64,000 bases of DNA from an uncultured Planctomycetota bacterium (lineage in GTDB: Bacteria > Planctomycetota > Planctomycetia > Isosphaerales > Isosphaeraceae), in NCBI GenBank assembly GCA_963845755.1, contig CAWJTV010000029.1:256001-320000 (forward strand). Direction: 5' to 3'. Positions 5,828 to 58,527 of the stretch are shown here, in pieces. The notes under the pieces were generated by a model. That model worked only from the letters and a program-made list of their open reading frames with translations. It ran no database searches and was not told where the DNA came from. Position numbers and translations under genes: made by a program. Position 1 is the stretch's first letter. The number at the start of each line of letters is the position of its first letter.

Positions 5828-6063
5828 AGGATTTCGCTCCGGTCGGAACAGTCGCGGCGGACCTGATCGAGGATCTCGGCGATCTTCTGAATTCCGTTGA
5901 CGGCCGAATCGACCGCCGACTCCAGGGGAAGCAGGTAGCGTTCCTCGAATCGATGGCGGACCGAGTCGCTCCAGGTCGCCTCGGTGATCAGCCACTGATC
6001 GCGGAGGAGACGGGCGCACTGGCCCAGACGAGTCGAGCCGGCGAGGACCTTGGCGTTCGGCAT
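5824..6063 (-). CDS. WXG100-like small helical protein (central W-S-D)
   Basis: 79 aa, helix-turn-helix pattern with central TWSDSVRHRFEERYL; coupled to the FtsK gene. Confidence 0.6.
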   Translation of the reverse strand: MPNAKVLAGSTRLGQCARLLRDQWLITEATWSDSVRHRFEERYLLPLESAVDSAVNGIQKIAEILDQVRRDCSDRSEIL

Positions 6064-36612: not shown

Positions 36613-36700
36613 CGAATCTCCCGGCACACCCCATCTATCAGGCCACACCGCCAAGGCGTCTCGCGAGCAACGACAATTGTAAATGGGAGGAATCGGGTCG

Positions 36701-40548: not shown

Positions 40549-42484
40549 CTATTTGGCGGCGGGTGCCGTTGATCTCGACGCCGCGTCTTTCTCCCGGGCT
40601 TCCTTCATCGCCTTCTCATGCTTCTCGCGGAATTCCTGCATCTGCTTGTGGAAAATCTCCATGAGATCGTCCTTCTCGCCGGACTTGGTGAGGTCCTGTC
40701 CCTTCTTGGTCACGGCGATGAAGCCGACGATCATCTCGTCGGTGGTCGCCTCACCCCACTTGACCAGCTTCGGCGGCTTGTTCGGATTATGTGGGTTGGA
40801 TGCGGAATTGTCATAGTGGGAGACGACGTTGAGCACGGAGCCCTTGGGGATCTCCAGCGGCTTCTCGAAGAAGTAGGAATACTGCCAGTTGAAGTCCCAG
40901 GCATCGATCTTGATCAGGTCCTGCTCGCGGCCGTCGGGGTACTTGATCGACATGGCGATGTCGCGCCCCAGGAGGTGCATGTGGGGCGTCACGGCATACG
41001 CGACCACGTCAACCGGGATCGGCCAGGCGGCCCTGGCCTCGATGTGGGAGTTTCCCGGCGGCAGCTCGAGTCCCGGGTTGGCCGCGGCGGCCCAATGAAG
41101 GGTCTGCCGGATCGGCTTGCGCGAAATGGAGGCCGATCCGTGTGCGGTCGGTCTCGGCCTTGCCGTTGGGATGGTAATGGACCTGGACGATGATATCGGA
41201 CGCGCGAGGCAGCGACCGGCCGATGCCGTCGGGCAACGGGCTGGGCTGAATGCCGGGTGCCCAGCCGCCTAGGTCACCGTGGACCGGCTCACCCGGTCCG
41301 CTGAAGCAGGAGTAACCGGGACCCGGATCGGCCGCATCCCGCTCCCGAGCCTTGCCCGAGATGTCCACGTAAGCCAGGAGGTGATGGACGACCCGGCGAT
41401 TGCCGGGCCGATACTCGATCGCCGTGACGTATTGATCCTTCTCCAGCTTGGTCGGGATCACGAAGCAGCGGTAGATGTCGTCCCCCGAGGCGGGGATCGT
41501 GAAGTCCGCCCCCATATCGACGATCAGGTCGGGCGTGCCGAGCTGCCAGTCGTCGGCAAATTTGGGCGGCGGCGGGAGGTCCCGTGGATCGCCTTCCGGA
41601 GCACCGGCCTCGGACCATGCGGTGATGGTGACGATCTCCTTGTCCGAGAGGAGCCGCTCGTCCTTGAACTTGACCCCGATATGCGGCGATGCCTTCCAGG
41701 GGGGCATCAGGCGATCCTCGATGACGGTCACGAGGTCTTTCGCCCGCTTCCGCGCCTGCTCGTAAGTTTCGAGGGAAAAGGGCCCGACCTGGCCCTGGCG
41801 GTGGCATTCCTGGCAGTTCTTCTGGAGGATCGGCGCGACGTCCTTGGTGTACGTCGGTCGGGCCGTGACCTCGGGAGCCTCGGGGATCGGGCAGCCGATG
41901 GCGGCGACGTGCGGCGCGGCGACCTCTTTCCCGCCCAAAACCGCCGCGATCGCGTCCTTCAGCTCGCTGCCACTCGGCGCAGCGTTCCTCACGCGGCGGG
42001 CGACGTACTGGTCGTCGATCCGACCGTGGTAGCGGACCTGTCCCTTGTCGTCCAGGACGAACGCCTCGGGCGTCATGGTCGCACCGATCTTGCGGGCGAA
42101 CCAGCCGTAGCGATCGCGCGCGACCCGGAGCTTCAGCCGGAAGTCCTGCGAGTGGGTGCGTACTTCGGAATCGCTCAGGTCCGGGTCGACGCAAACCCCG
42201 ACCCACTGCACCGACGGTTTCCCGAACCTGGCGACGAGCTCATCGAGGGTGGGACTGTAGGCGTTGGAGATGGGACATTCCGTGGAGTAGAAGATCAACA
42301 CCGTGGCCCCGCCCGCCGGCGCGGCGAGCGGGATTCGCTCATGATCCAGACCGGGGAGTGTGGTTTGCTTCAGCACCGCAGGGGAGCTGCCCTGCACGGA
42401 CCCACTGAATCCGATCAGAGACATCAGACAGCCCGCAATCACGAGCCCGCGGACGATCGAGGCAGTGACGGTCTTCACTGGCAT
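40549..42484 (-). CDS. Secreted redoxin + CxxCH + copper-monooxygenase-like protein, frameshift ~41125
   Basis: [45 protein letters not shown]. Confidence 0.85.
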
Positions 42485-42835
42485 GATGTTGGATCCTTCG
42501 TTCATTCGACTGATCTGCGTCGATGTTCGTGCTTGCATCGAATCGCGGCGTCCCGAACCGAGTTCGATGCGAGGGGACACCGCCCAGGATTCCCGGGGCG
42601 TCCTCCGCGGCGGTGCAACTCCGACGCGCGATATCCGGATGCGCGAGGAGTTCCACCTTGATCCATTTTACAGGAACCCGGTGGTCAAGACCAGACCGAT
42701 GGAGGGCCGATCGCGTCGGTTGACATGAAGAATCCCCGTAAGATGTTGAGGGGATCGGGCGATCTTACGGTCGTTAATCTCAGGCGGAGTGAGGCGAGAT
42801 TTGTTGACCTGCCCACGGTGATCTTTCCCCGCTCT

Positions 42836-43906
42836 TCAACCGATCGTGGCGGCGGGTAGAGCCTGGGAGGCGCCGAAGACCTTCAAGTCGCGGGGAACGA
42901 CGAAGATGTCGTCTCCGGGCTGCAAGTCCAGCTCGGCTCGGCGCTCGCGGGAGACCTGGGCGCGGACCTCCGTACCGTCCTTGAGGAGGAGCTCCAGACG
43001 AACGAGCCCGCCCAGCGGGACCACCTGGCAGACCCGCCCGGGCCAGGAGGGATGGCCGTTGAGCTGGCGGGTCACGTCGATGTCGTGGGGTCGGACGTAG
43101 ATGGTTACCGGTCCGTCGGGTGCGGAGTGTCCCATCGGCGCGAGGATCCCGTCTCCCAGGACCGCCTGACCATCGCGGCAACGGCCGCGCAGGACGTTGA
43201 CCGAGCCGAGGAACTCGGCCACGAACGGCGTCGCCGGATGCTCGTACAACTGCTGGGGCGGACCCATCTGCTCGACGCGGCCCTTGTTCAAGACGATCAC
43301 CTGGCCCGCGACCTCGAATGCCTCCTGCTGGTCGTGCGTGACGAACAGGCTGGTGACATGGACCTCGTCGTGCAGCCGGCGGAGCCAGGTGCGCAACTCG
43401 TCGCGCACGCGGGCATCGAGGGCGCCGAAGGGCTCGTCGAGGAGCAGGACCCGGGGCCGCGGGGCCAGTGCCCGCGCCAGGGCCACGCGCTGCCGCTGGC
43501 CACCCGAGAGCTGCGACGGATATCGATCCGCGTAGCCGCTCATCTGGATCAGCTCGAGCAATTCCTCGACCCGTGCGCGGATCTCCGCCCGGGGAAGCTT
43601 CTGGACCTCCAGGCCGAAGGCGATGTTCCGGCGGACTGTCATGTGGCGGAACAGGGCATAGTGCTGGAAGACGAACCCGACCCCGCGGCGCTGCACGGGC
43701 AAATCGGTCGCGTCTTCGCCGGTCAGTTCCACGGTCCCGGAGTCGGCCGGCTCCAGGCCGGCGATGATCCGGAGCAGCGTGCTCTTACCCGAGCCCGACG
43801 GGCCGAGCAGGGCCACAAGCTCCCCCGCCGGGACCGCGAACGTCACATTGTCGACGGCCTGGAACGACCCGAACCGCCTGGCGAGGTTCTCAACGCGGAT
43901 AGCCAT
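42836..43906 (-). CDS. cysA: Sulfate ABC transporter ATPase
   Basis: [32 protein letters not shown] domain. Confidence 0.95.
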
Positions 43907-43956
43907 GTCGGCGCCCTCTCCCTCACGCGGCCTTCGGCCGCGACTGAATAAGGTTT

Positions 43957-44043
43957 GAGATTCAGGATTCAAGATTTAAATATCAAAACTCCAGAATCAC
44001 TCCATTGGGAATCTCGGATCTCGAATTCTGAATCTTGAATCTG
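43957..44043. repeat. GATTCNN/GAATCNN inverted heptamer arrays between cysW and cysA
   Basis: gagattcaggattcaagattt ... gaatctcggatctcgaattctgaatcttgaatct. Confidence 0.65.
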
Positions 44044-44114
44044 GTGAATGCGATGATTGCGTGCCGGCCACCCGGCCTGAGCGCCAGGTCGAAGGCAAGA
44101 ATTCGGAAATCCCT

Positions 44115-44999
44115 CTAGTGCTTTTGCGTTCCCTCTCGGATCGCCAATCGCCGGCGGATCCGATCCATGCCCACGAGCAATGCAAACGAGATCCCCGCCA
44201 GCAGCAGGCTGGCGGCGTACGCCCCTTCCGGTCGGAAACTTTCGATCCCGTCGTGGATGTAGAGCGTGGCTGTCTGGGTGTGGCCGATGAGGTTGCCCGA
44301 GACGACGAGCAGGGCCCCGAACTCGCCGAGCGATCGGGCGATCGTCAGCGTCACGCCGTAGCAGAGACCCCAGCGGATCAGGGGCAGCGTCACGCGCCAG
44401 AACGTCTGCATGCGGCCTGCCCCCAACGTGTAGGCCGCTTCCACCTGATCGGTGCCGAACTCGCGGAGCACGGGGACGACTTCGCGGACCACGAACGGGA
44501 GGGTCACGAACATCGTGGCCAGGACCATGCCCGGCACCGCATAGACCACCCGGTAGCCCGCGGCTTCGATCCCGCGCCCCAGCCATCCCTCCGGCCCGTA
44601 GAGGATGACCAGCATCAGGCCGGCGATCACCGGCGAGACGGCGAAGGGCAGATCCACCAGGCCATCGGCCAGCGATCGGCCCCAGAAGCGTTGCCTGACC
44701 AGGACCAGGGCGAAGGCCACGCCGAAGATCGTGTTGATCGCGGTCGCCACGGCCGTGATCCCCAGCGACAAGCCGAAGGCACGCTGGAACTCCGGCGCGG
44801 CCAGCGCCTGGGCGAACGGCCGCCAGCCTCCCGCCAGCACCTGGCGGGCCAGCGCACCCGCCGGCACCAGGATCAACAGGGCGAACCAGCCCAGGACGAC
44901 GATATTCAGCAACCAGCGGCCCAGCGGGAGACTCCGAGGGCGCGCGGGCGTTGCCGGCTCGATCGGGCGAGCGATGGGACGGAGGACCTCAGTGGCCAT
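44115..44999 (-). CDS. cysW: Sulfate ABC permease
   Basis: DLPFAVSPVIAG, PFVVRE, ARSLGEFGA. Confidence 0.93.
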   Translation of the reverse strand: MATEVLRPIARPIEPATPARPRSLPLGRWLLNIVVLGWFALLILVPAGALARQVLAGGWRPFAQALAAPEFQRAFGLSLGITAVATAINTIFGVAFALVLVRQRFWGRSLADGLVDLPFAVSPVIAGLMLVILYGPEGWLGRGIEAAGYRVVYAVPGMVLATMFVTLPFVVREVVPVLREFGTDQVEAAYTLGAGRMQTFWRVTLPLIRWGLCYGVTLTIARSLGEFGALLVVSGNLIGHTQTATLYIHDGIESFRPEGAYAASLLLAGISFALLVGMDRIRRRLAIREGTQKH

Positions 45000-45819
45000 C
45001 GAACCCTCCTTGCCGGCGCTGGAGAAGGTTCAGGGCGATCAAGATCGCCAGCGAAGAGGCCAGCAGGACGACCGAGACGACCATCGCCCCGTGGCGATTG
45101 CCCCCCTCGATCTCGCCGAAGATGTACAGCGGGGCTGTCGCCGTCTCCATGGGCCGGTTACCGGCGACCAGCACGACGCTGCCGAACTCGCCGAGGGCGC
45201 GGCTGAACGCCAGCGCCGAGCCGGTCAGGACCGCGGGCCGGAGGGCCGGCAACGTCACACGAAGAAAGGTCCTCCACGGTCCGGCGCCGAGCGTCGAGGC
45301 GGCTTCCTCCTCGGCCCGGTCCAGTTCCAGGAGCACCGGCTGAACGCTGCGGATGACGAACGGATACGTGACCAGCAGCAGCGCCAGGATAATGCCCGGC
45401 TGGTGGTAGACGACGCCCCAGCCGAACTTGCCCAGGATGGTCCCGGCCACGCTCGCCGGACCATATAAGGCGACCAGCATCACGCCGGTGACGATGGTCG
45501 GCACGGCGAACGGCAGGTCGATCAGGGCGTTGACCAGCCCCTTGCCGGGGAAGTCGTGACGCACCAGGACCCAGGCCGTAGCGGTTCCGAGGACGACATC
45601 GACGACCACCATGATCAGGGCCGTGGTGAACGTGAGCTTCAGGGCATGCCAGGCGAAGGGGTCACTCAGGGCCGACCAGAAGGCGGCGAGTCCCGGTCGC
45701 GCGGCGTCGAGGCCGATCGCCAGCATCGGCAGCACGACCATCACGCCGAGGTAGGACAAGGTGGCCCCGCGAAGCAGCAGGTCCGCGGGAGCCGTGGCGA
45801 TCGCGGTTCGGGACATCAT
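44989..45819 (-). CDS. cysT: Sulfate ABC permease
   Basis: DLPFAVPT, PFVIRSVQP, EEAASTLGA, RALGEFGSV. Confidence 0.93.
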   Translation of the reverse strand: MMSRTAIATAPADLLLRGATLSYLGVMVVLPMLAIGLDAARPGLAAFWSALSDPFAWHALKLTFTTALIMVVVDVVLGTATAWVLVRHDFPGKGLVNALIDLPFAVPTIVTGVMLVALYGPASVAGTILGKFGWGVVYHQPGIILALLLVTYPFVIRSVQPVLLELDRAEEEAASTLGAGPWRTFLRVTLPALRPAVLTGSALAFSRALGEFGSVVLVAGNRPMETATAPLYIFGEIEGGNRHGAMVVSVVLLASSLAILIALNLLQRRQGGFDGH

Positions 45820-45820
45820 C

Positions 45821-46873
45821 TCACCTCCCTTTCGCCTGCGAGGTGAAGATCGATGTCCAGGTCCCCGCGGGTCCGTAGACCTCGTCCTGCAATGCGCCCC
45901 AGCCGCCGAGATCGGCCATGGTGAACAGGCTCGATGGCATCGGCGGCTTATCGGAAGTCTCGACAGCGGCCGGATCGGGTTTGACAGGGCGGAAGCCGTA
46001 ATCGGCCAGGATCCCCTGCCCCTCGGGCGAACGCAGAAATGCCAGGAATGACGCGGCCAACTCCCGGTTACCGTGCTTCGCGAGGGAGGTCTCGACGACG
46101 GCCGCCGGGCTCTCGATCACGAGGGTTGCGGGCGGGATCACGTAGGGGATCTCCTGGCCCGCCTTGCGCCGCAGGAGCAGCTCGTTCTCGTAGGTGACGA
46201 GCGCGTCGCCCGTACCACGTTCGAAGTTGGCCACGCTCTGGCGGCCGGAGGGGTCCATATTGACGACGTTGGCCTGGATCCGAGACATCAGGTCACGGAC
46301 GGCGGCACGATCGGGTTTCCCGTCGTGGGCGCGCTTCGATTCCAGCAAGGCGGCGCCGTAGATCGCGTTGATGTTCCAGCGGGCTCCGCCGGAGGTCTTC
46401 GGGTCGGGGTAGAGGACGCCCACCCCCGGACGGGCCAGGTCGGCCCAGTCCTTGATGCCTTTCGGATTACCGGGCCTGTGGCCGATGACGACGAGGCTGT
46501 GGCTGATGATGCCCTTGTCGGGGCCGTCATCCCAGTCGGCATTGACTCGCCCGGCCTTCACGAGGAGCTCCATGTCGCCGGAATGGGAGAGCACCACAAC
46601 GTCGGCATCGAACCCCGTGGCGACCGAACGGGCCTGGGCTCCCGAGGCGTTGTACGATTCTTCGAACCGCACCTTGCGGCCGGTCTTGCGCTTCCACTCG
46701 GCTTCGAATGCGGGCAGGAGGCCATCATGGAACGCCTCCTTCACCACCGAATAGGCGCCGAGCTCCAATACGTCGGTATCGGGGTCGGCCGCTGGGGAAC
46801 ACCCGGCCGTGAGCCCGCACAGGGCCAGGGCCGCCGTCCCCAGGAAAATCCAGGCATTCCGCCGCATCACCAT
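45821..46873 (-). CDS. sbp: Sulfate-binding lipoprotein
   Basis: Lipobox TAGC; ASGAQARSV, PDPKTSGGARWN, YENE. Confidence 0.93.
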   Translation of the reverse strand: MVMRRNAWIFLGTAALALCGLTAGCSPAADPDTDVLELGAYSVVKEAFHDGLLPAFEAEWKRKTGRKVRFEESYNASGAQARSVATGFDADVVVLSHSGDMELLVKAGRVNADWDDGPDKGIISHSLVVIGHRPGNPKGIKDWADLARPGVGVLYPDPKTSGGARWNINAIYGAALLESKRAHDGKPDRAAVRDLMSRIQANVVNMDPSGRQSVANFERGTGDALVTYENELLLRRKAGQEIPYVIPPATLVIESPAAVVETSLAKHGNRELAASFLAFLRSPEGQGILADYGFRPVKPDPAAVETSDKPPMPSSLFTMADLGGWGALQDEVYGPAGTWTSIFTSQAKGR

Positions 46874-46906
46874 CTCCTTCTGATCCGGGATCTCCGGGGA
46901 GGATGC

Positions 46907-47110
46907 TCAATCGCTCCCGGAGGCTTCCGCGCCGCCCGGATTGCCGTCGTCCGGGAGGAGTGAAGAGTCCGGTTTCACGTGGGGTAAGAGGGTCGGGTCG
47001 GTGTCCGGACGCATCGGCCGGGGTGCGCCGGTCTCGATCGACCTCGCCTGGAGCCGCGCGGCGAAGAATTCGGCGAGCAGTCGTCTGGTAAAGTCGCTGG
47101 ACGGATTCAT
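46907..47110 (-). CDS. Small hypothetical protein
   Basis: Co-oriented ORF filling the gap; no motif. Confidence 0.3.
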   Translation of the reverse strand: MNPSSDFTRRLLAEFFAARLQARSIETGAPRPMRPDTDPTLLPHVKPDSSLLPDDGNPGGAEASGSD

Positions 47111-47207
47111 GAACCGAGATCCTCGGGACAGGGACATGGGCGGCCGGGCATTCGACGCACGGCACCACCTTGGATTCCCACCGCTCGATGAAAGGGGCTC
47201 CGCGGCC

Positions 47208-47669
47208 TCACCTCAAACGAATCGGCTCGAGTTGATTGCTCTCGGCTCGCACGGTGACGACCAGGCCGGAGCTGTCCTCGTCGCCGTACTTGCCCGGAAA
47301 GGGCGGCTTCTTCCTGGATGTCGCGGCCGCCTGCTGCAACCGGGGTGACTCGACGCGGAGCTTGTAGTCCCCGGCCGGCGCGCCGTCTCCCGATCCACCC
47401 GTAACCAGGGAAAACGTCCCGTCCGAACTGATGACACCGCTGGGGGTCAAGGGCAGGTCGCCCTTCGGCACGAAGTAGATCCATCCCTCGCTCAACGGCT
47501 TACCATCGGCGAGCAGGACCTTGCCCTTGACCTCGTAGACGTGGAGGGACGGTAGCGAATCCGAGTTGTGACAGCCGCCCAGCCCCGCCAGCAGGGCCAC
47601 GACCGGGCCGGCCAGCCACCGAGAGCCGTAATGCCTCCGGTCCGCATGAACTATGGTCGATGCAGTCAT
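47208..47669 (-). CDS. DUF1559-associated small lipoprotein (carboxypeptidase-regulatory-like fold)
   Basis: LGGC lipobox; VKGKV..DGKPL, DGAPAGDYK, P.KY...SSGL. Confidence 0.8.
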   Translation of the reverse strand: MTASTIVHADRRHYGSRWLAGPVVALLAGLGGCHNSDSLPSLHVYEVKGKVLLADGKPLSEGWIYFVPKGDLPLTPSGVISSDGTFSLVTGGSGDGAPAGDYKLRVESPRLQQAAATSRKKPPFPGKYGDEDSSGLVVTVRAESNQLEPIRLR

Positions 47670-47813
47670 TTCAGAATCTCCCCAGAGATAGATGAGCAAC
47701 CAATCAAACCGGTCGAGAGGGCTCACCAATCCTTGAGCCGAGCGGCCTCGGAGGCCGATCCGAAGTGACGGCCCGAAGTCCTCCGACCCCGGGCCGCGCG
47801 AGACGCGCCTCAC

Positions 47814-48893
47814 TCAGTACTGATCGGAAGAGATGGTCTCGTTGCCCGACAGGGTGAGGAGCGACCGGAACGCCACCAGGTTGATGCTGTCCTTGATGAA
47901 GTGGACGGAACCGTCGCCGAACAGGGCGTTGATGCCACCAGGGTGGAAGGAGTACGGCTCCTCATTCGGGCCCGCCTGGTTGCCGGCCGTCACGATGGTC
48001 GAGGGCCAGGCCACTCCCTCATTGGTCGGAATTCCCTTGTTGTTGGGCTGGCCCGACGTGCCGAACGCACAGCCCGGGTCGGCCCACCTCCAGTATCGGT
48101 GTCGTGCTGTTGGCCCACCCGCGGGCCCCTGTCCCCGAACGACGGGATACTGACCTTCGAAGTACTGGCTGACGAACCGCTCGTCGCGGCCGGCGCACTC
48201 GATAATCGCGATCGTGTTGCTCAACCCGTCGGTGTCCTCGCTGATGAGGGTCTTACCGTCCTTGAGTAGACCCTTGGCGGCCACATTCTTGTTACGGTAG
48301 GGAACGATCGTCGTCGCACCGAGGCCGCCGGTGACCAGAGTGCCACCGACCACATTGATATCGGTATACACCGACGGCGCGTAATCCATGTAGCCGTAAC
48401 CGGCTGTCTGGGTCTTCTCGAAGGGCGAGGCGTTGGGGTCATTCTGGGCGGTGTCACGTCCCGCGGGACGGGGGTCGGACGGGCAGATAAATACCGTCAT
48501 CACTGGCGAGGCACCCGTGAAGTTGCCGCCGCTGGCGTCGTTATACTCGTACGCGAAATTCAGCGCGTTGTACTGCGAACCCCCTTCGATGTAGCTAAGC
48601 ACCCGGGCCTGGACGCTGAAGCCGGTGTCGGGGAACATCACCGATGGGGGCGAGGTCGTCAGATTGATCGACTTGCAGGCTGGTGGGAACACGCCGTTGC
48701 TATTCTCATAGTTATGCAACGCCAGGCCCATCTGCTTGAGGTTATTGGTGCACTGCGCCCGCCGGGCCGCCTCGCGTGCCGACTGGACAGCCGGCAGCAA
48801 TAGCGCGATCAGGACCGCGATGATCGCGATCACCACCAGGAGCTCGATCAGCGTGAAGCCGGGTCTTTGCGGCCGAATCCTCGGGGAAACCAT
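47814..48893 (-). CDS. DUF1559 (prepilin-type N-terminus, H-X9-DG) protein
   Basis: [44 protein letters not shown]. Confidence 0.95.
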
Positions 48894-49157
48894 GCTCAAT
48901 CTCCTTTCAAATCTGTAAACGGTCATCAGAAAATGTGATCACTTTAGTAAAAGACAGCCCTCGGCAGCACCGGGCATGCGGACGATCGACTGGATCGTCA
49001 TCGCGCACCCCTCCCGTGCCGCATCGCCAGGCATGCGGTGATCCTCGGCTCTTCAACATCTCACGTTCCAGGGCGCGGAATGCTCCGAACCCCGACGTAT
49101 GGGGTCTGCTCCGGGACCGATGCGGGCGCCTCCGCCCGCCAACGACATCACCCCTAG

Positions 49158-49173
49158 TGCACGTGGCGTGCCA
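49158..49173 (-). promoter_or_regulatory. Sigma54 -24/-12 promoter TGGCACGCCACGTGCA
   Basis: GG-N10-GC facing the DUF1559-sbp-cysTWA operon. Confidence 0.75.
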
Positions 49174-49245
49174 CCGCGCGAATGCTGCGACAACGCAACA
49201 ATTCCCGCCCTCCGAGGCGGTCAAATCCCTGGCAACCCACCCTGG

Positions 49246-49304
49246 CCGTGATATTTCCCGGGTAAACCGTGATATGTGCTAGGACAAACCGTCATATTTG
49301 ACGG
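49246..49304. promoter_or_regulatory. Triple enhancer site (consensus CCGTSATATTTGNCGG)
   Basis: Units at 49246, 49267, 49289; the last is the palindrome CCGTCA-TATT-TGACGG. Confidence 0.75.
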
Positions 49305-49377
49305 TTACTGGATTCGCGACGTCGATTCTGCCCATGCGGCCTCGACGCATGGAAGAGGGAAGCGATCGTGGACAGTC

Positions 49378-49644
49378 TCACGATCGGAACGACTCGAGAC
49401 CGGCCCTGCTCCGCGGATGACACGCTTCCGAGACCACGATGCTCGAGAGGATCCCTGTGGCAGCGAGGATCACTATGCCGATCGTACCGACGACGAGCAC
49501 GATCATCAGGACGGGCAATATACAGAGGACGAAGGCGACTCGAAAGAGTCGATCCAACAGAAACGTAACCATCGATGGGGTTTCCGTCGATCGAGACGCC
49601 TTGACGGCTGCGTGCGATGGTATCGATTGCAGTTGGGAAATCAT
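49378..49644 (-). CDS. Small membrane protein
   Basis: Long hydrophobic stretch; start uncertain. Confidence 0.45.
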   Translation of the reverse strand: MISQLQSIPSHAAVKASRSTETPSMVTFLLDRLFRVAFVLCILPVLMIVLVVGTIGIVILAATGILSSIVVSEACHPRSRAGLESFRS

Positions 49645-49720
49645 GGCCAGCTCCTTTACGTGTTTTAACAAGAACTGTAGTGGTTCAAGCTATCGCGTCC
49701 GGGGCCCATCCCACTCGCGC

Positions 49721-50209
49721 CTACATGGCCAGGGACGCCCGAGACTGAGCTTTCGATCGTCGTGGTTGCTGATCGGCTGGGACATTGGCTGCAGGTCCGC
49801 GATAGGACCCTCGACGGAGGTACGTGTCGAGGACACGACCGATTTGGTGCTCATGATGGGTGCGACTGATATACTCGGTCACGCCCATGCGATAGAGTCG
49901 CGTTGCCTGCTCGACGCGATACGATTCGGAGACGACCAGTACGGGGACGCGATGCGCCAGTACGGTCGTCGTCCAGAGGAGCCGATTCAACCCCTCGTAA
50001 CGGGCCCCGCGGCCCCAGTGAAGGACGATCAACCGCGGCGGATCGGCCTTTTCCAGCGAGAGACAGGCGTCCTCGATCGTGGCCGCCACGGCCATCCGGG
50101 ACGGCCCGGCCTCGCAATGCCCGAGGTGCCATTGGAGTAGCCGGAGTAGCTGATCGTCCGACGAGATCGTCAGGAGAGTAAGGTCGAGCATGCCTGTCGG
50201 CTCCATGAG
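49721..50209 (-). CDS. Atypical stand-alone receiver domain
   Basis: TISSDD, PRLIVLH (His where Asp is expected), PVLVVS, MGVTEYI. Confidence 0.65.
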   Translation of the reverse strand, partial: LMEPTGMLDLTLLTISSDDQLLRLLQWHLGHCEAGPSRMAVAATIEDACLSLEKADPPRLIVLHWGRGARYEGLNRLLWTTTVLAHRVPVLVVSESYRVEQATRLYRMGVTEYISRTHHEHQIGRVLDTYLRRGSYRGPAANVPADQQPRRSKAQSRASLAM

Positions 50210-50281
50210 CATTTGCGGTCTGTCCTGCCATCGACATCTCGCGGGGCCATCCCATCGCGCGATTCCTCTATCTAGCACCTC

Positions 50282-51662
50282 TCATGCCAGGATCTCTTTG
50301 ACGACTCGCCCGGCCACGTCGGTCAGGCGGAAGTCCCGCCCGGCATAGGGGTAGGTCAACCGGCGATGGTCGAGGCCCACGAGGTCCAGAAGCGTGGCAT
50401 GAAGGTCGTTAGTGTGCATGCGTCCCTCAACGGCGCGGATGCCGTATTCGTCGGTCGCTCCGTATGAGAACCCTGGTTTGACGCCGGCACCGGCAAGCCA
50501 CATTGGGTAGCCGGTGATGTTGTGGTCGCGGCCGTTTTCGCCCTGGGCGGTCGGCTGGCGTCCGAACTCGCTGCCGAACAGGACCAGAGTCTCATCCAGC
50601 AACCCGCGCTGGTCGAGGTCGGCCAGGAGGGCAGCGGTCGGCTGATCGACGGACGCGCAGCGGTCGATCAATCCCTGGTGCAGGTTGGTGTGGTGATCCC
50701 AGCCAGGCTGGCAGATCTCGACGAACCGCACACCGGCCTCGCAGAGCCGTCGAGCCATGAGGCACTGGCGTGCAAAGGCTCCGGCCGGGCCGGGCTTCAC
50801 GCCGTAGGCGTCGAGCACGGGCTGGGGTTCTCGGGAAATGTCGAGCAGTTCGGGTACCTTCCCCTGCATGCGAAACGCCAGCTCGTACGATTGGATGATG
50901 CCGTCGACCTCGTCCGGCGCACTCGGGTTCGCCGCAAGGGTGCGGTTCATGGCCTGGATCAAGTCCAGTTGCCGGCGCTGCTGCCGGGTTGTGACCTGGG
51001 GTTTCAGGTTCGGGAAGTATCCCTGATCGTTGATGCGTGTGCCCTGGTACTGGGCGGGGAGGAAGCGCGCTGCCGTAGTTCACGGCCCCGCCAAAGTTGG
51101 GCGGCGGATTGATGGTGACGTACCCGGGCAAGTCCTGGTTCTCGGTGCCGAGCCCGTAGAGGAGCCAGGCCCCCATGCTCGGCCGGGTGAGAGCGGCGTT
51201 GGCGCTGCCGGTGTGCAACTGGACCACCGCCTGGGGGTGTGCCGGCGTATCGGTGTATAGTCCGCGGAGCCAGCAGAGCTTATCGGCGTGGGCCGCCATG
51301 TGCGGGAGCAACTCGGAGAACCAGGCCCCCGAATGGCCGTGCTGGCGGAACTTGAACTTCGAGGCGGTCAAGGTGCCGCCGCCCGGGCCGGGCTTGCCCC
51401 CGTCCTTCTGGAGCTGCGGCCGATACTCGAAGGTATCCACTTGCGAGATCGCCCCCTGCATGAACAGGAAGATGATCCGCGTCGCTTTCGGCTTGAAGTG
51501 CGGCCGCCTCGGTGCCAGAGGATGCGGCGCGCCTCCGCCGGAGGCTCGAGCGGCGGCCTGTCCGAGCAGGCCGGCGAACGCCAGGTAACCAAACCCCGCG
51601 CCCGCCAATTGGAGGACCTGGCGTCGCGAAAGCGGGGAAAAATGGAAATTTTTAACGAACAT
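50282..51662 (-). CDS. DUF1501 protein with Tat signal, frameshift ~51065
   Basis: SRRQVL; IIFLFMQGAISQVDTF, PSMGAW, GWDHH, SEFGRQP, GRDHN. Confidence 0.92.
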
Positions 51663-51702
51663 ATCAGTACTCCTTAAATTAAAGGGGTCGGGTGATTGGG
51701 GG

Positions 51703-54312
51703 TCACTGGATGTAACGGAACTCGGCGGAGCCGAACAGCACTTGACCGAGGGCGAGCCAGGCCGCAGTGCGGGCATCGCGCGCCCGGATCACGGGCTCGA
51801 CGATTGGCTCATCGGTCTGGTCGATCTCGTCCGGGTTCTCGGGCTGTGGTTTCGGCTTCGCCGGCGTGGTTGGGTCGTCGGCGCTCGCGACTTGCGGTTC
51901 GAAGGAGGCCGCGGTGCCCAGCTCGGCCTGATCGGTCTCGTACTCCGCGAGGAAGGCACGGCTCCTCTCGATCTCGCCCTCCTTCGGTGAACGTCCCAGA
52001 ACCAGGCGGAACATCGCCCGAATCCGATCTTCGTCGGCGCCTTCCAGATCGAGGAGGCGCCTGGCCATCGCGAGCGATTGCCGACGTACGAATGGGGAGT
52101 TCAGGAGGTAGAGTGATTGGCCCGGGACCGTGGTAATCTGGCGTCGCCCCGTGACCAGCGTCTGCTCGACCGGGTCGAAGGCCTCCAACGGCCGGGGCGT
52201 GATCCCCCGCATCAACGGCAGATAGACACTGCGATGCGTGCTCGCATCTGCCTTCTCCAGGAGGGCGCGGGCCTCCGGACCGTTGTCGCGGACCTCGACC
52301 ATCTTCAGTTCCTGAACTGGTGAGCTGCCCTGTTGCTGGGGCGTCAGGCTGCCGGCCGAGGCGAGCATCGCGTCGCGGACCTCCTCGGCATCCAGGCGAC
52401 GAGGGCTGTGCCGCCAGATCAGTGCGTTCGCCGGATCGGCAACGAGGTGCTCCGGGACCGCCCGGGAGCCGAGCTGATACGACCGGCTGAGGACGATCGT
52501 ACGCACGAGCCGCTTGATCGACCGCCCGTCCTGGAGGAAGCGGGTTGCGAGGTGGTCGAGCAGCTCGGGGTTCGAGGGCGGGTCTCCCGTGGCGCCGAAG
52601 TTGTCCACGGTCGAGACGATCCCACGGCCAAACAGGTGATACCAGATGCGGTTGACGATCACCCTCGAGGTGAGAGGATTGCCGGCGCCTGTGAGCCAAC
52701 GGGCCAGTTCCAGGCGCCCGCTGTGCTTCGGATCGACCTTCGGGGCACCAGGGACCTCGAAGGCCGTCAGGAACCCGCGAGGGACCGCCGGCCCGAGCCG
52801 CTCCGCCTGACCGCGGATGCGGACCTCGGTATCGCCAACCTGCCCGGCATCCCGGACGCCGTGGACCGCATGGCCGCGAGCGGCCGGATCGGTGAAGGCG
52901 AGCAGCTCGCCATAGAGTCGGTCGTACTTGCGGCGATACTCCCGCTGCTTCGGAAGGCCGTTCGGCCCCTTGGCCAGACCTTCCCGGGTACCGCGGATCT
53001 CGTCCCAGGCTTTCTTCGCCTCGGCGACCTTGGCTGTCAGCTCCCGCACCTCCTTCTCGGGGGGCGGCGGCAGGTCTCCCGAGAGCTTCACAAGTAGCGA
53101 GGGATCGTAATATGCGAGCCCACCTCCGCCCATCTTGCTGCGTAGCCCCGCGCAGTTGTCGGTGCTGGTGAAGATCCCGGCCAGAGCGTAGTAGTCGGTG
53201 GTCGGGATCGGGTCGAACTTGTGGTCGTGGCAGCGGGCGCAGCTCACCGTCAGGGCGAGGATTGACCGGCTCACGGCGTCGATCTGATCGTCCACGTTGT
53301 CCATCAGGAACCGGACCTTGAACCGCTGGTTCACGTCCTTGACCCCGAGGGCAAGGAAACCCGTGGCGGTCAGCAGTCGGTCTCGCTCCGCGGTCGACGC
53401 GGCGGGAAGGAGATCGCCGGCAATCTGCTCGGTGACGAACCGATCGAACGGCACGTCGGCGTTCACCGCGTCGATGACATAGTCGCGGTACTTCCAGGCG
53501 TGCGGGTAGGGAATGTTCCGAGACGGGCCGGTGGACTCAGCGTATCGGGCCACGTCGAGCCAGTGCCGCCCCCAGCGCTCGCCGAAGTGCGGCGAGGCGA
53601 GCAGCCCATCAACAACCCGGCCGAAGGGATTCGGGGAGGCATCTTCCAGAAATCTATCGATCTCATCCGGGGTCGGCGGCAGGCCGATCAGGTCGAACGT
53701 GACCCGGCGAAGGACGGTGATCTTGTCGGCGTCCTCGACCGGCTTCAGTCCCGCCTCCTCGAGCCCGGCCAGGACGAAACGATCGAGTTCATCCCTCGGC
53801 CACGACGTTTCACGCACGGCCGGCAACTCGGGATTGGTGAGCGGTTGCCAGGCCCAGTGCTCCTTCCGGAGCGGCTCATACCAATCTTTCGGCCGACCCA
53901 GCGACGTGGGAACCTTCACCGACGGCCATTGAGCTCCCTCGCGGACCCATCGAGTCAGGGCGGCGATCTGCTCCTTGTTCAGCGGTTGGCCTTCCTTGGG
54001 CATCCGCCGTTTCGGGTTCGCGTGGGTCACCCTCCGGAGCAACAAGCTAGACTCCGGGTCCCCAGGCACCACGGCTGCTCCGTTGTCCCCGCCGACGAGC
54101 AGCCCGTTGCGATCGTCCACCCGGAGTCCACCCGCCGGTTTGGTGTCGGCCGAGTGACACGCATAGCAGTGGTCCACCAGGATCGGCCGGACATTCTCCT
54201 CGAAGAACTCCACCGACGCATTGTCGCGTGGCGCCTGTCCCCAGGCCGCGGACGGCACCGCGGCGAGGATCGCGAACCCGAGTGAGCCAATGAATCGAGA
54301 TCGATAAACCAT
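51703..54312 (-). CDS. Planctomycete cytochrome c + DUF1549 + DUF1553 protein
   Basis: HCYACHS, GERWGRHWLDVARY, CARCHDHKFDP, PELLDHLA, RRLDAE. Confidence 0.95.
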   Translation of the reverse strand: MVYRSRFIGSLGFAILAAVPSAAWGQAPRDNASVEFFEENVRPILVDHCYACHSADTKPAGGLRVDDRNGLLVGGDNGAAVVPGDPESSLLLRRVTHANPKRRMPKEGQPLNKEQIAALTRWVREGAQWPSVKVPTSLGRPKDWYEPLRKEHWAWQPLTNPELPAVRETSWPRDELDRFVLAGLEEAGLKPVEDADKITVLRRVTFDLIGLPPTPDEIDRFLEDASPNPFGRVVDGLLASPHFGERWGRHWLDVARYAESTGPSRNIPYPHAWKYRDYVIDAVNADVPFDRFVTEQIAGDLLPAASTAERDRLLTATGFLALGVKDVNQRFKVRFLMDNVDDQIDAVSRSILALTVSCARCHDHKFDPIPTTDYYALAGIFTSTDNCAGLRSKMGGGGLAYYDPSLLVKLSGDLPPPPEKEVRELTAKVAEAKKAWDEIRGTREGLAKGPNGLPKQREYRRKYDRLYGELLAFTDPAARGHAVHGVRDAGQVGDTEVRIRGQAERLGPAVPRGFLTAFEVPGAPKVDPKHSGRLELARWLTGAGNPLTSRVIVNRIWYHLFGRGIVSTVDNFGATGDPPSNPELLDHLATRFLQDGRSIKRLVRTIVLSRSYQLGSRAVPEHLVADPANALIWRHSPRRLDAEEVRDAMLASAGSLTPQQQGSSPVQELKMVEVRDNGPEARALLEKADASTHRSVYLPLMRGITPRPLEAFDPVEQTLVTGRRQITTVPGQSLYLLNSPFVRRQSLAMARRLLDLEGADEDRIRAMFRLVLGRSPKEGEIERSRAFLAEYETDQAELGTAASFEPQVASADDPTTPAKPKPQPENPDEIDQTDEPIVEPVIRARDARTAAWLALGQVLFGSAEFRYIQ

Positions 54313-54368
54313 GAAAATGTCCGCCTTGCTTTGGGTATGGTGTGGGTCGGTGTTCCGCCGGCCGGGCG

Positions 54369-54868
54369 TCAGTAGGAGTCCGCGGAGACCACCTCGCCCT
54401 GCCTGACCGAGCCGAGCGCCCAGACGGTTGGACCGCTGGTGCTATCCTTGAGGAACCGGACGGATCCGTCGAGGATCAGGACATGTTGATCACGTCCCCG
54501 CCCCCAGCCGCGTCATTGAAGATGCCGACTTGGAAATTCAGGGCGTTGTAGAGCGACGCTTGCTCGAGGTAATTCAGCATGCGGGCGTGCACACTAGGGC
54601 CGTGATTATTATAAATAGTTGTCGAATTGATGTCCCCGTTCGGGAAATACGCCAGCGCCTCCGGCGGGAAGCAATCATTGACCTGGTGGTAGTTGTGCAG
54701 GCCCAGACCGATCTGCTTGAGGTTGTTGACACACTGGATCCGCCGCGCCGCCTCGCGTGCCGCCTGCACAGCCGGTAACAGCAGGGCGATCAAGACCGCG
54801 AGGATCGCGATCGCCACCAGTAGTTCGATCAGAGTGAACCCGAATCGCGTGCGCCGTCTTCGGGTCAT
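54369..54868 (-). pseudogene. Internally deleted DUF1559 gene
   Basis: GFTLIELL N-terminus joined out of frame to the C-terminal [13 protein letters not shown]...GEVVSADSY*. Confidence 0.85.
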
Positions 54869-55182
54869 CCCGGATCGCCCGACGGCTCGCGACTCCTCGC
54901 GATCTACTCGGCCGGGGCGATGAAAGGATCCAGAGCTCAGACGATAAGTCGTCGACATGCCAGACTTCCCTGGTCTGCGCCTGCCTCTGGTTTCTCCAGT
55001 CAGCGGTCCGCGGGGATCGGTATGGGACCTCTCGATGACGAGTCGGTGACTTGTGGGATCGGAGTCTCGGTGGTGACTGTGGTTCGCGGCGTGTCGGGGT
55101 GTCCCATCAACGGGGAGACAAGGGATCGCAGATGGCTTTCAAGGTGTCGGGCCGGCCAGAAACCTGCTCAATCAGAGCATAT

Positions 55183-55374
55183 TCACTTGAGCCGTTGTTT
55201 TTCCATGCGATCAATCTGAATCACGACGCCGTTCTGGATGACGATTCTCACCTCGCCGAACCGGATTCCGTTGATCGCCGCCCGGATCGGCTCGAGATCG
55301 ATCGCCACACCAGTCGGAGTCCGCCGGTTAACCCCCGAGTCCTGTGAATCATTCTCGATGGATAAAGACGGCAT
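55183..55374 (-). CDS. DUF2292 (YezD/OscA-like) small protein
   Basis: AINGIRFGEVRIVIQNGVVIQIDRMEKQRL. Confidence 0.85.
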   Translation of the reverse strand: MPSLSIENDSQDSGVNRRTPTGVAIDLEPIRAAINGIRFGEVRIVIQNGVVIQIDRMEKQRLK

Positions 55375-55514
55375 TGGTACCTCTCCCCGACCACGAACGT
55401 CCTACCGGGCTGTTGACTCGGCACAATCAGAACGCCGACATCCCGACTTCTCGGCATCCAGACCGAGCCCCTTCCCTTGCGGGGCCACTTCGGCGCGAAT
55501 CGTGCTCACCGATT

Positions 55515-55530
55515 TGCAGGTGCCGTGCCG
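55515..55530 (-). promoter_or_regulatory. Sigma54 -24/-12 promoter CGGCACGGCACCTGCA
   Basis: GG-N10-GC facing the DUF2292 operon. Confidence 0.7.
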
Positions 55531-55602
55531 AACCGAGAAGAATCCGGCATCGCTGCGAAATCCGGCTCGATTCTCGATGAGACGGTCGGAGCTTGCCGAG
55601 GA

Positions 55603-55660
55603 CCGTGACATTTGCCAGGATATCCGTGATATTTGCTCGGATAACCATCATATTTGACGG
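55603..55660. promoter_or_regulatory. Second triple enhancer site
   Basis: Units at 55603, 55624, 55645, similar to those at 49246-49304. Confidence 0.75.
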
Positions 55661-55669
55661 GAGAGTCGG

Positions 55670-57286
55670 ATGGAGCGCCATGCCAGCCTGCTTCTTGATG
55701 TCTGGAGGGAGGTCTGCCGCCACATCGAGATCGGCGAATCGATCGAGCGGCTTGCCCCGATCCTGATGCGTCGCTTGCCGATCGAGTTGATCCTGATCCG
55801 GAGGCTCGACCCGGCGCGATCTTGCATCGAGACGGTGGCCACGGGCCACTGTCGTCCGGCGCCGGAGGGGTCGCCTTCGTCCGGACCGGTCCGGAGCAAC
55901 GTGGCCGCGGCCGAGTTGGAGCAACTGGCCGCATGGTGCGGCCGGGGCAAGGTGCTTCGCGGCACAGACCGGAACCTCCGGCGACGACTACCCGAACTGT
56001 TGCCGGAAGGGATCGAGGGGCAGGTCCTGGCCGGCCCGCTCATCGTACCGGATGCGCCGCCGGGGATCCTGATCCTGATCGGTTCATCCCGGCAGGAGCC
56101 GCGCGATGATCACCTCGAGCTCGTGCAGGCGCTGCTCGAGCCGTTTGCGGTGGCACTGGAGAACGATCACCGGCTGCGCGAGCTGGTCTCACTCCGCGAG
56201 GCGCTCGAGGCGGACAAGATGTCGCTGCTCTCCCGATTGGGCCGGCATGACATCAGCGACTCGATCGTCGGGGCGGACACCGGCCTGAAACCGGTGATGG
56301 ATCAGATCGAGCTGGTCGCACGATCGGATACGCCCGTCCTGATCCTCGGTGAGACGGGTGCGGGCAAGGAGGTCGTGGCGCGGGCGATCCATGAGCGATC
56401 CCGGCGGGCCGTGGGTCCGTTCCTGAGGGTCAATTGCGGTGCCATCCCGCCTGACCTGGTGGACTCGGAGTTGTTCGGCCACGAGAAGGGGAGCTTTACC
56501 GGGGCGGTCGGGACGCGAAAGGGGTGGTTCGAGCGGGCAGACGGGGGCACGCTCTTCCTCGATGAGTGCGGTGAGCTGACGCCGGCCGCCCAGGTGAGGC
56601 TGCTCCGGATCCTCCAGGATGGCACGTTCGAGCGGGTCGGCGGCGAGCGGCAGTTGCATGTCGACGTCCGGATCGTGGCCGCAACCCACCGTGAACTGGC
56701 GGAGATGACCGGCGACGGGCGGTTCCGCCAGGACCTGTGGTATCGCCTGGCGGTCTTTCCGATCCGCCTGCCGCCCCTGCGCGACCGACCGGCCGACATC
56801 CCGCCCTTGGCGGCCCACTTCGCCGTGAGGGCCGCCAAGCGGTTGGGGCTGCCGATGATGGCACCCTCCGCGGAAGATGTCAATTTGCTGGTCGCCTATT
56901 CCTGGCCCGGCAACGTGCGCGAACTCGCAGCCGTGATCGAACGCGCGGCGATCCTCGGCGGCGGGGTCCGGCTCGACGTGGCCCGAGCCCTGGGGCATCG
57001 GCCTCCAACCGCTTCGTCGGCGCCTTCGAATGCCGAGGCGTCCATCCCACCAGCGGACACGACGGAGCCGCTGGCCCCCCTGGGGATCGCCATGGCCCGG
57101 CACATCGAGGCGGCCCTGACACGGACCGGGGGACGCGTCGAAGGGCCTTCGGGAGCCGCCGCCCTCCTGGAGATCAATCCACACACGCTCCGCGCTCGCA
57201 TGCGTAAGCTCGGCGTCGCCTGGCAGGGCTTCCGATCCTCCGCACCGGCGTGGAGGCAGGGGCCGGAGCCCGACGGTCAGAAGTAG
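55670..57286 (+). CDS. Sigma54-dependent activator (GAF-like + AAA+ + HTH; FhlA/HyfR-like)
   Basis: GETGAGKE, ELFGHEKGSFTGA, FLDE, WPGNVREL, GAAALLEINPHTLRARMRKLG. Confidence 0.95.
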   Translation: MERHASLLLDVWREVCRHIEIGESIERLAPILMRRLPIELILIRRLDPARSCIETVATGHCRPAPEGSPSSGPVRSNVAAAELEQLAAWCGRGKVLRGTDRNLRRRLPELLPEGIEGQVLAGPLIVPDAPPGILILIGSSRQEPRDDHLELVQALLEPFAVALENDHRLRELVSLREALEADKMSLLSRLGRHDISDSIVGADTGLKPVMDQIELVARSDTPVLILGETGAGKEVVARAIHERSRRAVGPFLRVNCGAIPPDLVDSELFGHEKGSFTGAVGTRKGWFERADGGTLFLDECGELTPAAQVRLLRILQDGTFERVGGERQLHVDVRIVAATHRELAEMTGDGRFRQDLWYRLAVFPIRLPPLRDRPADIPPLAAHFAVRAAKRLGLPMMAPSAEDVNLLVAYSWPGNVRELAAVIERAAILGGGVRLDVARALGHRPPTASSAPSNAEASIPPADTTEPLAPLGIAMARHIEAALTRTGGRVEGPSGAAALLEINPHTLRARMRKLGVAWQGFRSSAPAWRQGPEPDGQK

Positions 57287-57580
57287 AGCTGGACGCGCCA
57301 CCAGAAGACATTGGCCGTCGGCTGGTATCTCCCTTTTGCAAAAGTGATAGGATTGTTGAACTCCTGGTGGTTCCAGTCCAAGTCCATCTTGAGATATTGA
57401 GTCATCCACCAGTTGATGCCGATGTCGGTCTGCCAGACGCGGTTGGCATTGCCCGTCGTGCTCGCCAGCCCGTAGCTGGAGACCGAAGCCCCGATATCCA
57501 GGTAACCGTAACGTCCGAAGACCTCCCACGCTCCCCAGCCCCGTTCTCCGGCCCTCAGGGTGAACGGGTTCTTCGGCTTG
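57277..57580 (-). pseudogene. 3' remnant of an OprO/OprP-like outer-membrane porin
   Basis: Manual translation KPKNPF...GWGAWEVFGRYGYLDI...IGINWW...FWWRVQLYF*; terminal Phe; 5' part missing. Confidence 0.75.
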
Positions 57581-57612
57581 TCGACGTGACTCGCCCGCGC
57601 AATCCGGCCGAT

Positions 57613-58527
57613 TCATATCTTGGGTGTGCGAATGGGAGAGTGGACAGGAGGACGATCGGGATGGTCGTTCACGTCCGGCTCCAGCAGGGCCGTTCCTGCC
57701 ATCAATGCGAACCCGGCCAGGAGGGCGGCGGAGAGTTTGAATCGGTCGTGCGAGTGGAATTGAAGCTCTGGCAAGAGGTCACTCAACGCGATGCACAGGA
57801 ATGTTCCGGCCGAGAAGGCCAGCGCGCCGGCGGTCCATGACTCGGGAGAGAACCACGCCGAAGCCTGCGTGCCGATCCAGAAGAGGGCCACTCCCGCCGG
57901 GATCATCAGGGCGAAGCCGAGATTGACGAGATGGGTGGATCGCCGCTCGGCGCCCGCGCGGAGCATCAGTGTGGTGATCGTCAGGGCGTCGGCCGGCTTG
58001 TGGACGAGGGTTGCCAGGAAGACGCCCAACCCGGCCCCCATCATGCCGTTGCCGACCCGAAAATCGGCGGCGACCGCGCTGGCCAGGGCGATGCCGCCCG
58101 CCAGGGAATGCACCGCCAACCCGAATGCCGCCGAGCCCCACGAGAGCACGACGAAGGGATTCGATCCCTTCGCGCCCGACCCGCAGTGATCGTGCGTGCC
58201 TGCATGAGCGGGATGCGCCACCCTCGAGACTCTCTCGCCGGCCGGTTCTTCCGTTTCGTGGTGATGGAACGAGAAGAACCGCTCCAGAAAAAACAGGGCG
58301 AGCAAGCCGAGAGCCGTCCAGCGGACCGTCTCGGCCGATCCGACCCGCACTGCCTCCGGAATCATGTGGAAGAACGCGGCGCCCAGCATCGCACCGGCCG
58401 AAAAGCTCAGGTACACTTGCAGACGGGTGTGATTCAAGGCCGTCGCCAGCGGCAGGATCCCTCCCAGGACGCTAACGATCACGATGGCCGTGCAGAACGC
58501 GCTAATCGTGATCGTCATCGGGCTCAC
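57613..58527 (-). CDS. ZIP-family metal transporter
   Basis: SAGAMLG..FFHMIPEA, His-rich loop, HSLAGG, HKPAD, DLLPE. Confidence 0.9.
   Translation of the reverse strand: MSPMTITISAFCTAIVIVSVLGGILPLATALNHTRLQVYLSFSAGAMLGAAFFHMIPEAVRVGSAETVRWTALGLLALFFLERFFSFHHHETEEPAGERVSRVAHPAHAGTHDHCGSGAKGSNPFVVLSWGSAAFGLAVHSLAGGIALASAVAADFRVGNGMMGAGLGVFLATLVHKPADALTITTLMLRAGAERRSTHLVNLGFALMIPAGVALFWIGTQASAWFSPESWTAGALAFSAGTFLCIALSDLLPELQFHSHDRFKLSAALLAGFALMAGTALLEPDVNDHPDRPPVHSPIRTPKI

Follow-up and report, generated by a model that had tools for sequence, protein, structure and literature searches.

A predicted sigma-54-dependent regulon for sulfur supply with triple-site enhancer arrays in an uncultured planctomycete of the Isosphaeraceae

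We have analysed a stretch of 64,000 nucleotides (the window, to which all plain coordinates refer) of contig C29 (CAWJTV010000029.1) from an uncultured planctomycete of the family Isosphaeraceae, whose genome assembly of 14.27 Mb has 64% GC, is 88% complete and contains many frameshifts. On the forward strand of the window, a gene at 55670..57286 encodes a sigma-54 activator of 538 amino acids, composed of a GAF domain, an AAA+ domain and a helix-turn-helix (HTH), which is the predicted regulator of two leftward operons. The more distant operon encodes a DUF1559 protein, a small lipoprotein-like protein and the sulfate importer Sbp-CysTWA, and the nearer one DUF2292, DUF1559, DUF1549/1553 and DUF1501 proteins. 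A sequence-only reading of this DNA had proposed that the activator senses sulfur status, regulates itself and drives both operons, and the gene order it gave for them is upheld by Pfam and NCBIfam models.

The importer operon (minus strand, as are all genes of both operons) opens with a DUF1559 pilin-like protein with an H-X9-DG end (47814..48926, likely start at 48893) and its small lipoprotein-like partner (47208..47813), which matches no Pfam or NCBIfam family and whose homologue cluster is found in 21 loci including the window. All four importer subunits exceed the cut-offs of sulfate-specific models: the sulfate-binding protein Sbp (45821..46873; TIGR00971, 194.5 versus 155.5), the permeases CysT (44989..45819; TIGR02139, 279.2 versus 246.1) and CysW (44115..44999; TIGR00969, 294.6 versus 240, with TIGR02140 staying below its cut-off, 274.4 versus 329.1) and the ATPase CysA (42836..43972; TIGR00968, 395.9 versus 342.75). 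The second operon starts with an OscA-like small protein of the DUF2292 family (55183..55374), found as a single copy in the genome, which passes PF10055 (56.2 bits, cut-off 22) and stays under the cut-off of the OscA model NF033785 (37 bits versus 85). The following DUF1559 pilin-like gene (54369..54958) is internally deleted and frame-shifted: only positions 1-77 of PF07596 are matched, about 620-650 bp are missing compared to the related genomes G261 and G296, and a C-terminal remnant lies in another frame. It is succeeded by a PSCyt1-DUF1549-DUF1553 protein (51703..54312; Pfam) and by a DUF1501 gene (50282..51776) that is split across two frames, likely by an assembly frameshift, with PF07394 positions 1-116 and 169-390 in two open reading frames (ORFs). 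Between DUF1501 and the next array lies an atypical receiver-like ORF (49721..50278; weak NtrX match, E 5e-4), which the sequence-only reading had omitted and which is probably the last gene of this operon; it keeps its place after DUF1501 in G261 (49%) and G296 (58%). By eye, the usual phospho-acceptor aspartate seems to be missing from this ORF, which has one paralogue (C47:245738, 56%).

Both operons are headed by a -24/-12 box of the form GG-N10-GC on the minus strand. Box P1 (49158..49173, TGGCACGCCACGTGCA) has a predicted start at ~49147, ~250 nt ahead of DUF1559, and box P2 (55515..55530, CGGCACGGCACCTGCA) one at ~55504, 130 nt ahead of DUF2292. Each box is accompanied by three sites, every one of them a 16-bp interrupted palindrome, the best being 49289-49304 (CCGTCATATTTGACGG). 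The sites of array 1 (49246..49304), a predicted satellite enhancer, start at 49246, 49267 and 49289 (periods of 21 and 22 bp), and those of array 2 (55603..55660), which is conserved upstream of orthologues and predicted to act as enhancer and operator, at 55603, 55624 and 55645 (21 and 21 bp). In both cases the first site begins 73 bp from the box, and the last site of array 2 ends 9 bp ahead of the ATG of the activator gene at 55670, so that the claimed geometry is reproduced in full. The equal offsets are no mark of duplication, since 73 bp is the modal spacing of the family. A duplication of one promoter unit was considered and rejected, the spacers being unalike and the cross-similarity confined to the 60-bp array. 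The tandem layout is common to G261 and G296 and absent in other relatives; there, the offset on the activator side is 75 and 63 bp, respectively. An Rfam search of 42000-58000 gave no match.

The activator is encoded by a single gene in the genome. Its AAA+ domain belongs to the sigma-54 enhancer-binding proteins (PF00158, 225 bits) and is followed by an AAA lid and a Fis-type HTH (PF02954, HTH_8, 24.7 bits versus a cut-off of 22). The ATPase motifs are intact, with Walker A at 227, GSFTGA at 274, Walker B at 295, the arginine finger at 353 and sensor II at 412; GSFTGA appears among the functional GAFTGA variants in the accessible part of PMC4641369. The genome also encodes rpoN (TIGR02395, 401 bits). 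Within the N-terminal domain, Pfam recognises GAF_2 at E 0.013 only, and a search of solved structures by sequence returned weak GAF matches at best (E 0.016 or worse). The predicted fold nevertheless bears out a GAF-type sensor with its signalling helix: the model, built from a 58-row alignment, reaches a pLDDT (predicted local distance difference test) of 92.6, Foldseek finds 209 matches at E 0.001, which are GAF domains, and the best structural match is 3k2n, the GAF domain of a Chlorobium sigma-54 regulator (Z 14.9, root-mean-square deviation 3.5, 166 aligned residues). An Atlas search led to generic GAF clusters, and a search of 50% clusters to 149 proteins at E 1e-30, including long ones with multiple GAF domains. 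Among the 25 curated equivalog models listed of the 27 matched, the activator passes none. Residues W12, R13, H18, R44 (88), T55 (87) and W89 (94) are kept in 87-96 of the 96 rows, R75 (70/96), C16 (71/96) and C90 (68/96) less so. From their register with 3ci6 and from the pocket of phosphodiesterase GAF domains, we assume that R44 and T55 probably point into the ligand pocket. A redox role for C16 was rejected, as 25 of 96 rows carry G, S or A instead.

The arrays are rare in the genome. With a matrix built on six sites, the whole genome yields 11 phased pairs, of which only the window arrays and one on contig C5 exceed a score of 30, the next reaching 22. A refined matrix was built on upstream regions of orthologues, seeded with the window sites and then freed of the window; here, the top arrays score 42.1, 38.5 and 30.8, and all three are accompanied by a -24/-12 box, compared to 22.8 for the fourth-best, which has no box, and to no more than 14.6 in the reversed genome. 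The third array (C5:657621, box 74 bp away) stands ahead of a DUF1559 gene and a sulfatase gene split across frames. Hence, the view of a regulon of two operons stands for both window operons, which carry array and box, but falls short by one operon outside the window, and the 'twin' layout is a real tandem pair that represents two of three regulon members rather than a distinct design. Three of the genome's 131 DUF1559 starts have an array and four are followed by a sulfatase-like gene, which makes a chance sulfatase behind the third array unlikely. The cysH cluster, sulfite reductase, cysK and sulP of the same genome have no array; within this genome the predicted regulon is thus confined to sulfur supply. 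Single sites of this kind number 54 in the genome, with a chance expectation of ~0.005 per 1200 bp. Two further candidates were discarded: the pair at C28:136743 lacks a box and resembles coding sequence, and a lone 13.7-bit site ~700 bp before sulfite reductase lies inside another ORF, without partner site or box. The cysH cluster (C5:240017-243200) combines cysH with rrf2 and an ATP sulfurylase-like gene and likely represents a second, CymR-like layer for sulfate reduction. A SelD-like gene (named by reading; L081:3313-4488) converges on the regulon sulfatase of contig C5.

The same arrangement recurs around orthologues of the activator. A contig scan returned 434 stretches with a relative, of which the best 80 were used and also served as the training set of the matrix. 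A site lies within 260 bp of the start in 74/80 loci, and two or more sites in 70/80, a state that shuffled upstream regions reach in 0.2%. Intervals between sites are 19-24 bp in 113 of 136 cases. Among 73 loci, boxes point away from the activator in 53 and toward it in 11 (shuffles 3%), and the offset between box and array is 71-75 bp in 17/55, the rest falling roughly at helical steps. Activator and array adjoin in records from Planctomycetota, which hold the closest relatives of the activator, Myxococcota, Desulfobacterales, Gammaproteobacteria and Spirochaetales. On the divergent side, counted in the 75 loci whose upstream sequence exceeds 1200 bp (the other 5 of 80 were dropped), sbp occurs in 46, DUF1559 in 23, TauE in 13 and porin O/P in 10; at least one of sbp, TauE, sulfatase and DUF2292 faces the activator in 61/75, in line with the proposed sulfur-acquisition targets. 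One case is the record of Tautonia sp. JC769 (L005), with an array ahead of DUF1559 and a sulfatase. An obligate partnership of DUF2292 with the activator was rejected, since DUF2292 is present in a minority of loci only. Other gene sets also occur under the array: an ABC ATPase, a HypB-like GTPase, a cysteine desulfurase and an FeS protein (L070:6079-9507), an ABC ATPase and HypB-like GTPase again, placed after TauE (L075:6289-9044), and, in the Phycisphaerae loci L055 and L069, a molybdate-binding-type protein (DsrE-fused in L069) with HmcB/HmcC-like redox genes.

Outside the training set, array and activator occur together. Among 101 genomes of the family, where only 52 and 32 candidates per genome were scored, the array is found in 20, the activator in 19, both in 19 and neither in 81; the one genome with an array only is 60% complete. 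An exact two-site pattern run over 251 genomes of the class proved too strict, with 2 matches and the own genome missed. A held-out set of 16 non-self loci from the phylum, none matching training DNA, shows two or more sites in 11 and one site in 1. Seven of them face sbp-cysTWA (cysK first in 3), two cysC (same genus), one TauE, and two (L138, L142) face sulfonate/taurine-type ABC genes, below curated cut-offs and without the family site, giving 12/16 with sulfur genes in total. In two held-out loci the activator lies behind a same-strand unit of ABC and porin genes, as seen by tblastn only. In L138 a -24/-12 box is oriented toward the activator gene. Satellite arrays, located apart from the activator, precede DUF1559-lipoprotein-sbp-cysTWA in G261, G296, G271 and G172, DUF2292-DUF1559 units in G261 and G282 (DUF2292 alone in G290), and DUF1559 with two sulfatases in G296.

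From these sequence data, we propose with a probability of about three in four that the GAF-AAA+-HTH activator turns on three operons via sigma-54 at low sulfur. The GAF fold, AAA+ motifs, rpoN, co-occurrence, sulfur targets and promoter overlap on which the interpretation relies have all held, and it is supported to that extent. As a one-component regulator of the NifA/NorR/PexR type, the protein would occupy every array with three dimers, as the comparison with NorR and PexR suggests. When sulfur is sufficient, the GAF domain would keep the ATPase off; upon shortage, an active ring may form, contact sigma-54 polymerase at a distance of about seven turns and open the promoters. The predicted targets are DUF1559-lipoprotein-sbp-cysTWA, DUF2292-DUF1559-DUF1549/1553-DUF1501-receiver and the DUF1559-sulfatase operon on contig C5. 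Activation under limitation is deduced from the nature of the targets, and the direction of the signal and the ligand from the targets together with the conserved residues. The ligand is the weakest step of the explanation: we tentatively favour sulfate or another sulfur oxyanion, a small anion that would sit in the GAF pocket and hold the protein off, and rank cysteine or O-acetylserine close behind it.

The activator would moreover repress its own sigma-70-type promoter at site 1. A weak -35/-10 pair reading toward the activator gene (55593..55621, plus strand) overlaps this site, which fits repression of the activator's own gene and the autoregulation proposed earlier. In 45 three-site arrays, the pattern TTG-(16-18)-TA..T toward the activator falls on site 1 in 11, on site 2 in 0 and on site 3 in 2, and mirrored controls give at most 1. 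The two satellite arrays of the own genome have no -35 at the corresponding place. Two observations speak against such a promoter: the first base of the candidate -10 in the window is off consensus, and the sigma-70 scan overall is at chance level (3 versus 1.7). Taken together, this modestly suggests a PexR-like autorepression of the activator gene.

Several observations weigh against a single sulfur-responsive regulon, and some of them nourish other explanations. The 80 loci are mutually related, so that their counts overstate independence; the offsets show weak helical phasing (R 0.40 at 10.5 bp, 0.52 at 11 and 0.43 at 12); and the family is patchy, with an activator in 17 of 301 genomes of the phylum. 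None of the four sulfur markers is present in 14/75 loci, including L046 with hdrB/hdrA as divergent genes and L070, where the array faces an ATPase-GTPase-NifS module. Of the 12 site-bearing held-out loci, two have no sulfur gene opposite the activator, and only four carry a strict -24/-12 box, several others keeping the -24 part only. A satellite array in G254, and likewise weak two-site matches in G329, G315 and G333, have neither a box nor an identified sulfur gene. That sites are absent from 4 of 16 held-out activator loci, and that the genome holds 22 sigma-54 ATPase domains, would also fit arrays bound by another factor or acting as mere operators, with the neighbouring activator as a bystander; given that the activator is present in 19 of 20 array-positive genomes, that both are missing from 81 and that the array adjoins the activator in loci of several phyla, we find this hardly credible. 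Another of the 14 loci without markers is L028 (Desulfobacterales, 2179-6049), in which activator, array and box face pstSCAB while the conserved GAF residues are unchanged. Along with the molybdate-binding-type protein that, with DsrE, is found within or at the head of the operon of some Phycisphaerae loci, it could indicate a general regulator of oxyanion supply, for which sulfate is merely the commonest use. The phosphate case is single among 96 loci, and the cysK, cysC, sulfatase and DUF2292 targets are sulfur-specific, which renders this reading very unlikely.

The regulator and its targets could also be right and the signal different, namely an inducing sulfur compound (sulfate ester, sulfonate, thiosulfate) or chromate/selenate stress instead of shortage. 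GAF activators often respond to a substrate, and the targets include sulfatase, TauE-family and sulfonate-type ABC genes. Furthermore, oscA-sbp is chromate-induced in Pseudomonas corrugata, according to the portion of PMC2996968 at hand. The sulfate ABC importer is nonetheless the commonest target (46/75), and cysK and cysC occur in held-out loci; together, importer, cysK and cysC make up a classical starvation set and not a substrate-specific pathway, and we consider an inducer or stress signal unlikely. Compatible with a sulfur-responsive regulon is the possibility that the DUF2292 operon is a decaying passenger without sulfur function: its DUF1559 gene is deleted in the window, the genome contains many DUF1549-type genes (57 matches) and the families of the operon have no known sulfur role. 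Against this, the unit has retained an array and box of its own in G261, G296 and G282, detached from the activator in the last, and DUF2292 is the OscA family. A passenger seems rather unlikely to us.

The closest parallel is PexR of Myxococcus xanthus. As far as the available part of PMC12754779 goes, both share the single GAF-AAA+-DNA-binding layout, three interrupted palindromes in tandem ahead of sigma-54 promoters, a divergent regulator gene with a distant satellite target, and repeats that overlap a housekeeping-type promoter; in PexR, the three repeats serve as enhancer and operator and the housekeeping promoter is repressed. Unlike here, the PexR site is CACCG-n6-CGGTG and its targets are ahpC/katB; the GAF domain of PexR holds a His/His/Cys/Asp metal centre, as the same portion states (PMC12754779). 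No ahpC, katB or ccp was identified among the neighbours in our loci, and residues 38-138 contain no conserved His and only D47, E54 and C90 as conserved potential ligands, a comparison made without direct alignment to PexR. NorR of Escherichia coli is likewise GAF-type with three sites, all of which it needs for ATPase activity and open complex formation according to the accessible part of PMC2831303. The activator does not pass the NorR equivalog (319 versus a cut-off of 476), and no genes for nitric oxide (NO) reductase are among the neighbours identified, whereas NorR targets NO-detoxifying genes. FhlA and HyfR share GAF and sigma-54 ATPase domains, and many relatives are labelled 'hydrogenase-4 transcriptional activator' by JGI. 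The designation 'FhlA-like' holds for the domain order but not for the family: the activator covers only positions 304-687 of 692 of the FhlA/HyfR model and scores 314 versus a cut-off of 830, it has one GAF domain, and hydrogenase or formate genes are not its usual neighbours.

The target set, with sbp-cysTWA, cysK, cysC, sulfatases and an oscA-like gene, overlaps the regulons of CysB and CymR, a LysR and an Rrf2 protein, respectively, which act at sigma-70/A promoters. In the own genome, an Rrf2 gene sits in the cysH cluster, which has no array. SfnR of Pseudomonas putida reportedly lacks a GAF sensor. It resembles the present system in its sigma-54 dependence and sulfate-starvation-induced genes, yet is itself CysB-regulated and serves dimethylsulfone use, as the available excerpt of PMC8234197 describes, whereas the main target here is the sulfate importer itself. 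Leptospira EbpA was rejected as an orthologue based on its two GAF domains and nitrogen targets in the part of PMC12655853 at our disposal. The predicted mechanism is an ordinary, NorR/PexR-like one, but the family, operator and role are apparently undescribed: no description of them, or of sulfur-uptake control in planctomycetes, myxococcota and other little-studied phyla, was found in the literature searched, most subscription papers being beyond reach.

What the window adds are satellite arrays through which genes for DUF1559, DUF1549/1553/1501 and sulfatase proteins join the predicted regulon. For DUF1559, DUF1549/1553, DUF1501 and DUF2292, all of them large families without a known function, a condition of induction is thereby predicted. 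What the DUF1559 modules do is the most valuable lead, Rhodopirellula baltica alone having 74 DUF1559 genes according to the part of PMC2754498 available. The main text of PMC12316311, as far as accessible, does not contain 'sulfate' and reports a lesser enrichment of COG2165 in Planctomycetia, and the accessible part of PMC3162934 shows no such group. The DUF1559 proteins of the regulon fall into six clades among 132 sequences, in a tree where some rows duplicate one genome and the background consists of own-genome paralogues only, and no clade holds another own-genome paralogue. DUF1559 is absent from all 13 porin-bearing loci, a pattern confounded by taxonomy. With little confidence, we extend the proposal to a cross-phylum sensor of sulfur supply that would do the job of CysB via sigma-54, with the DUF1559-lipoprotein and DUF1549/1553-DUF1501 units as envelope machines that capture or import sulfur-bearing substrates. 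If so, the regulon would show what planctomycete DUF1559 modules do, and six DUF1559 clades would have been recruited separately behind the array, filling the slot before sbp that is held by a porin elsewhere. As the protein is named, the operator exact, the starts predicted and the target operons three in number, the prediction is directly testable.

Further genes surround the regulon in the window. Directly downstream of cysA, a frame-split pair of redoxin and copper type II monooxygenase-like genes (40549-42580, minus strand) is possibly co-transcribed with the importer. It is followed by a frameshift-broken SelB-like elongation factor gene (35482-40513, minus strand; GTP_EFTU, named by reading) that is part of a long fused ORF, and several more window genes are frame-split, as expected from a long-read assembly. 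On the other side, a gene for a ZIP-family metal transporter (57613-58527, minus strand) converges on the activator gene.

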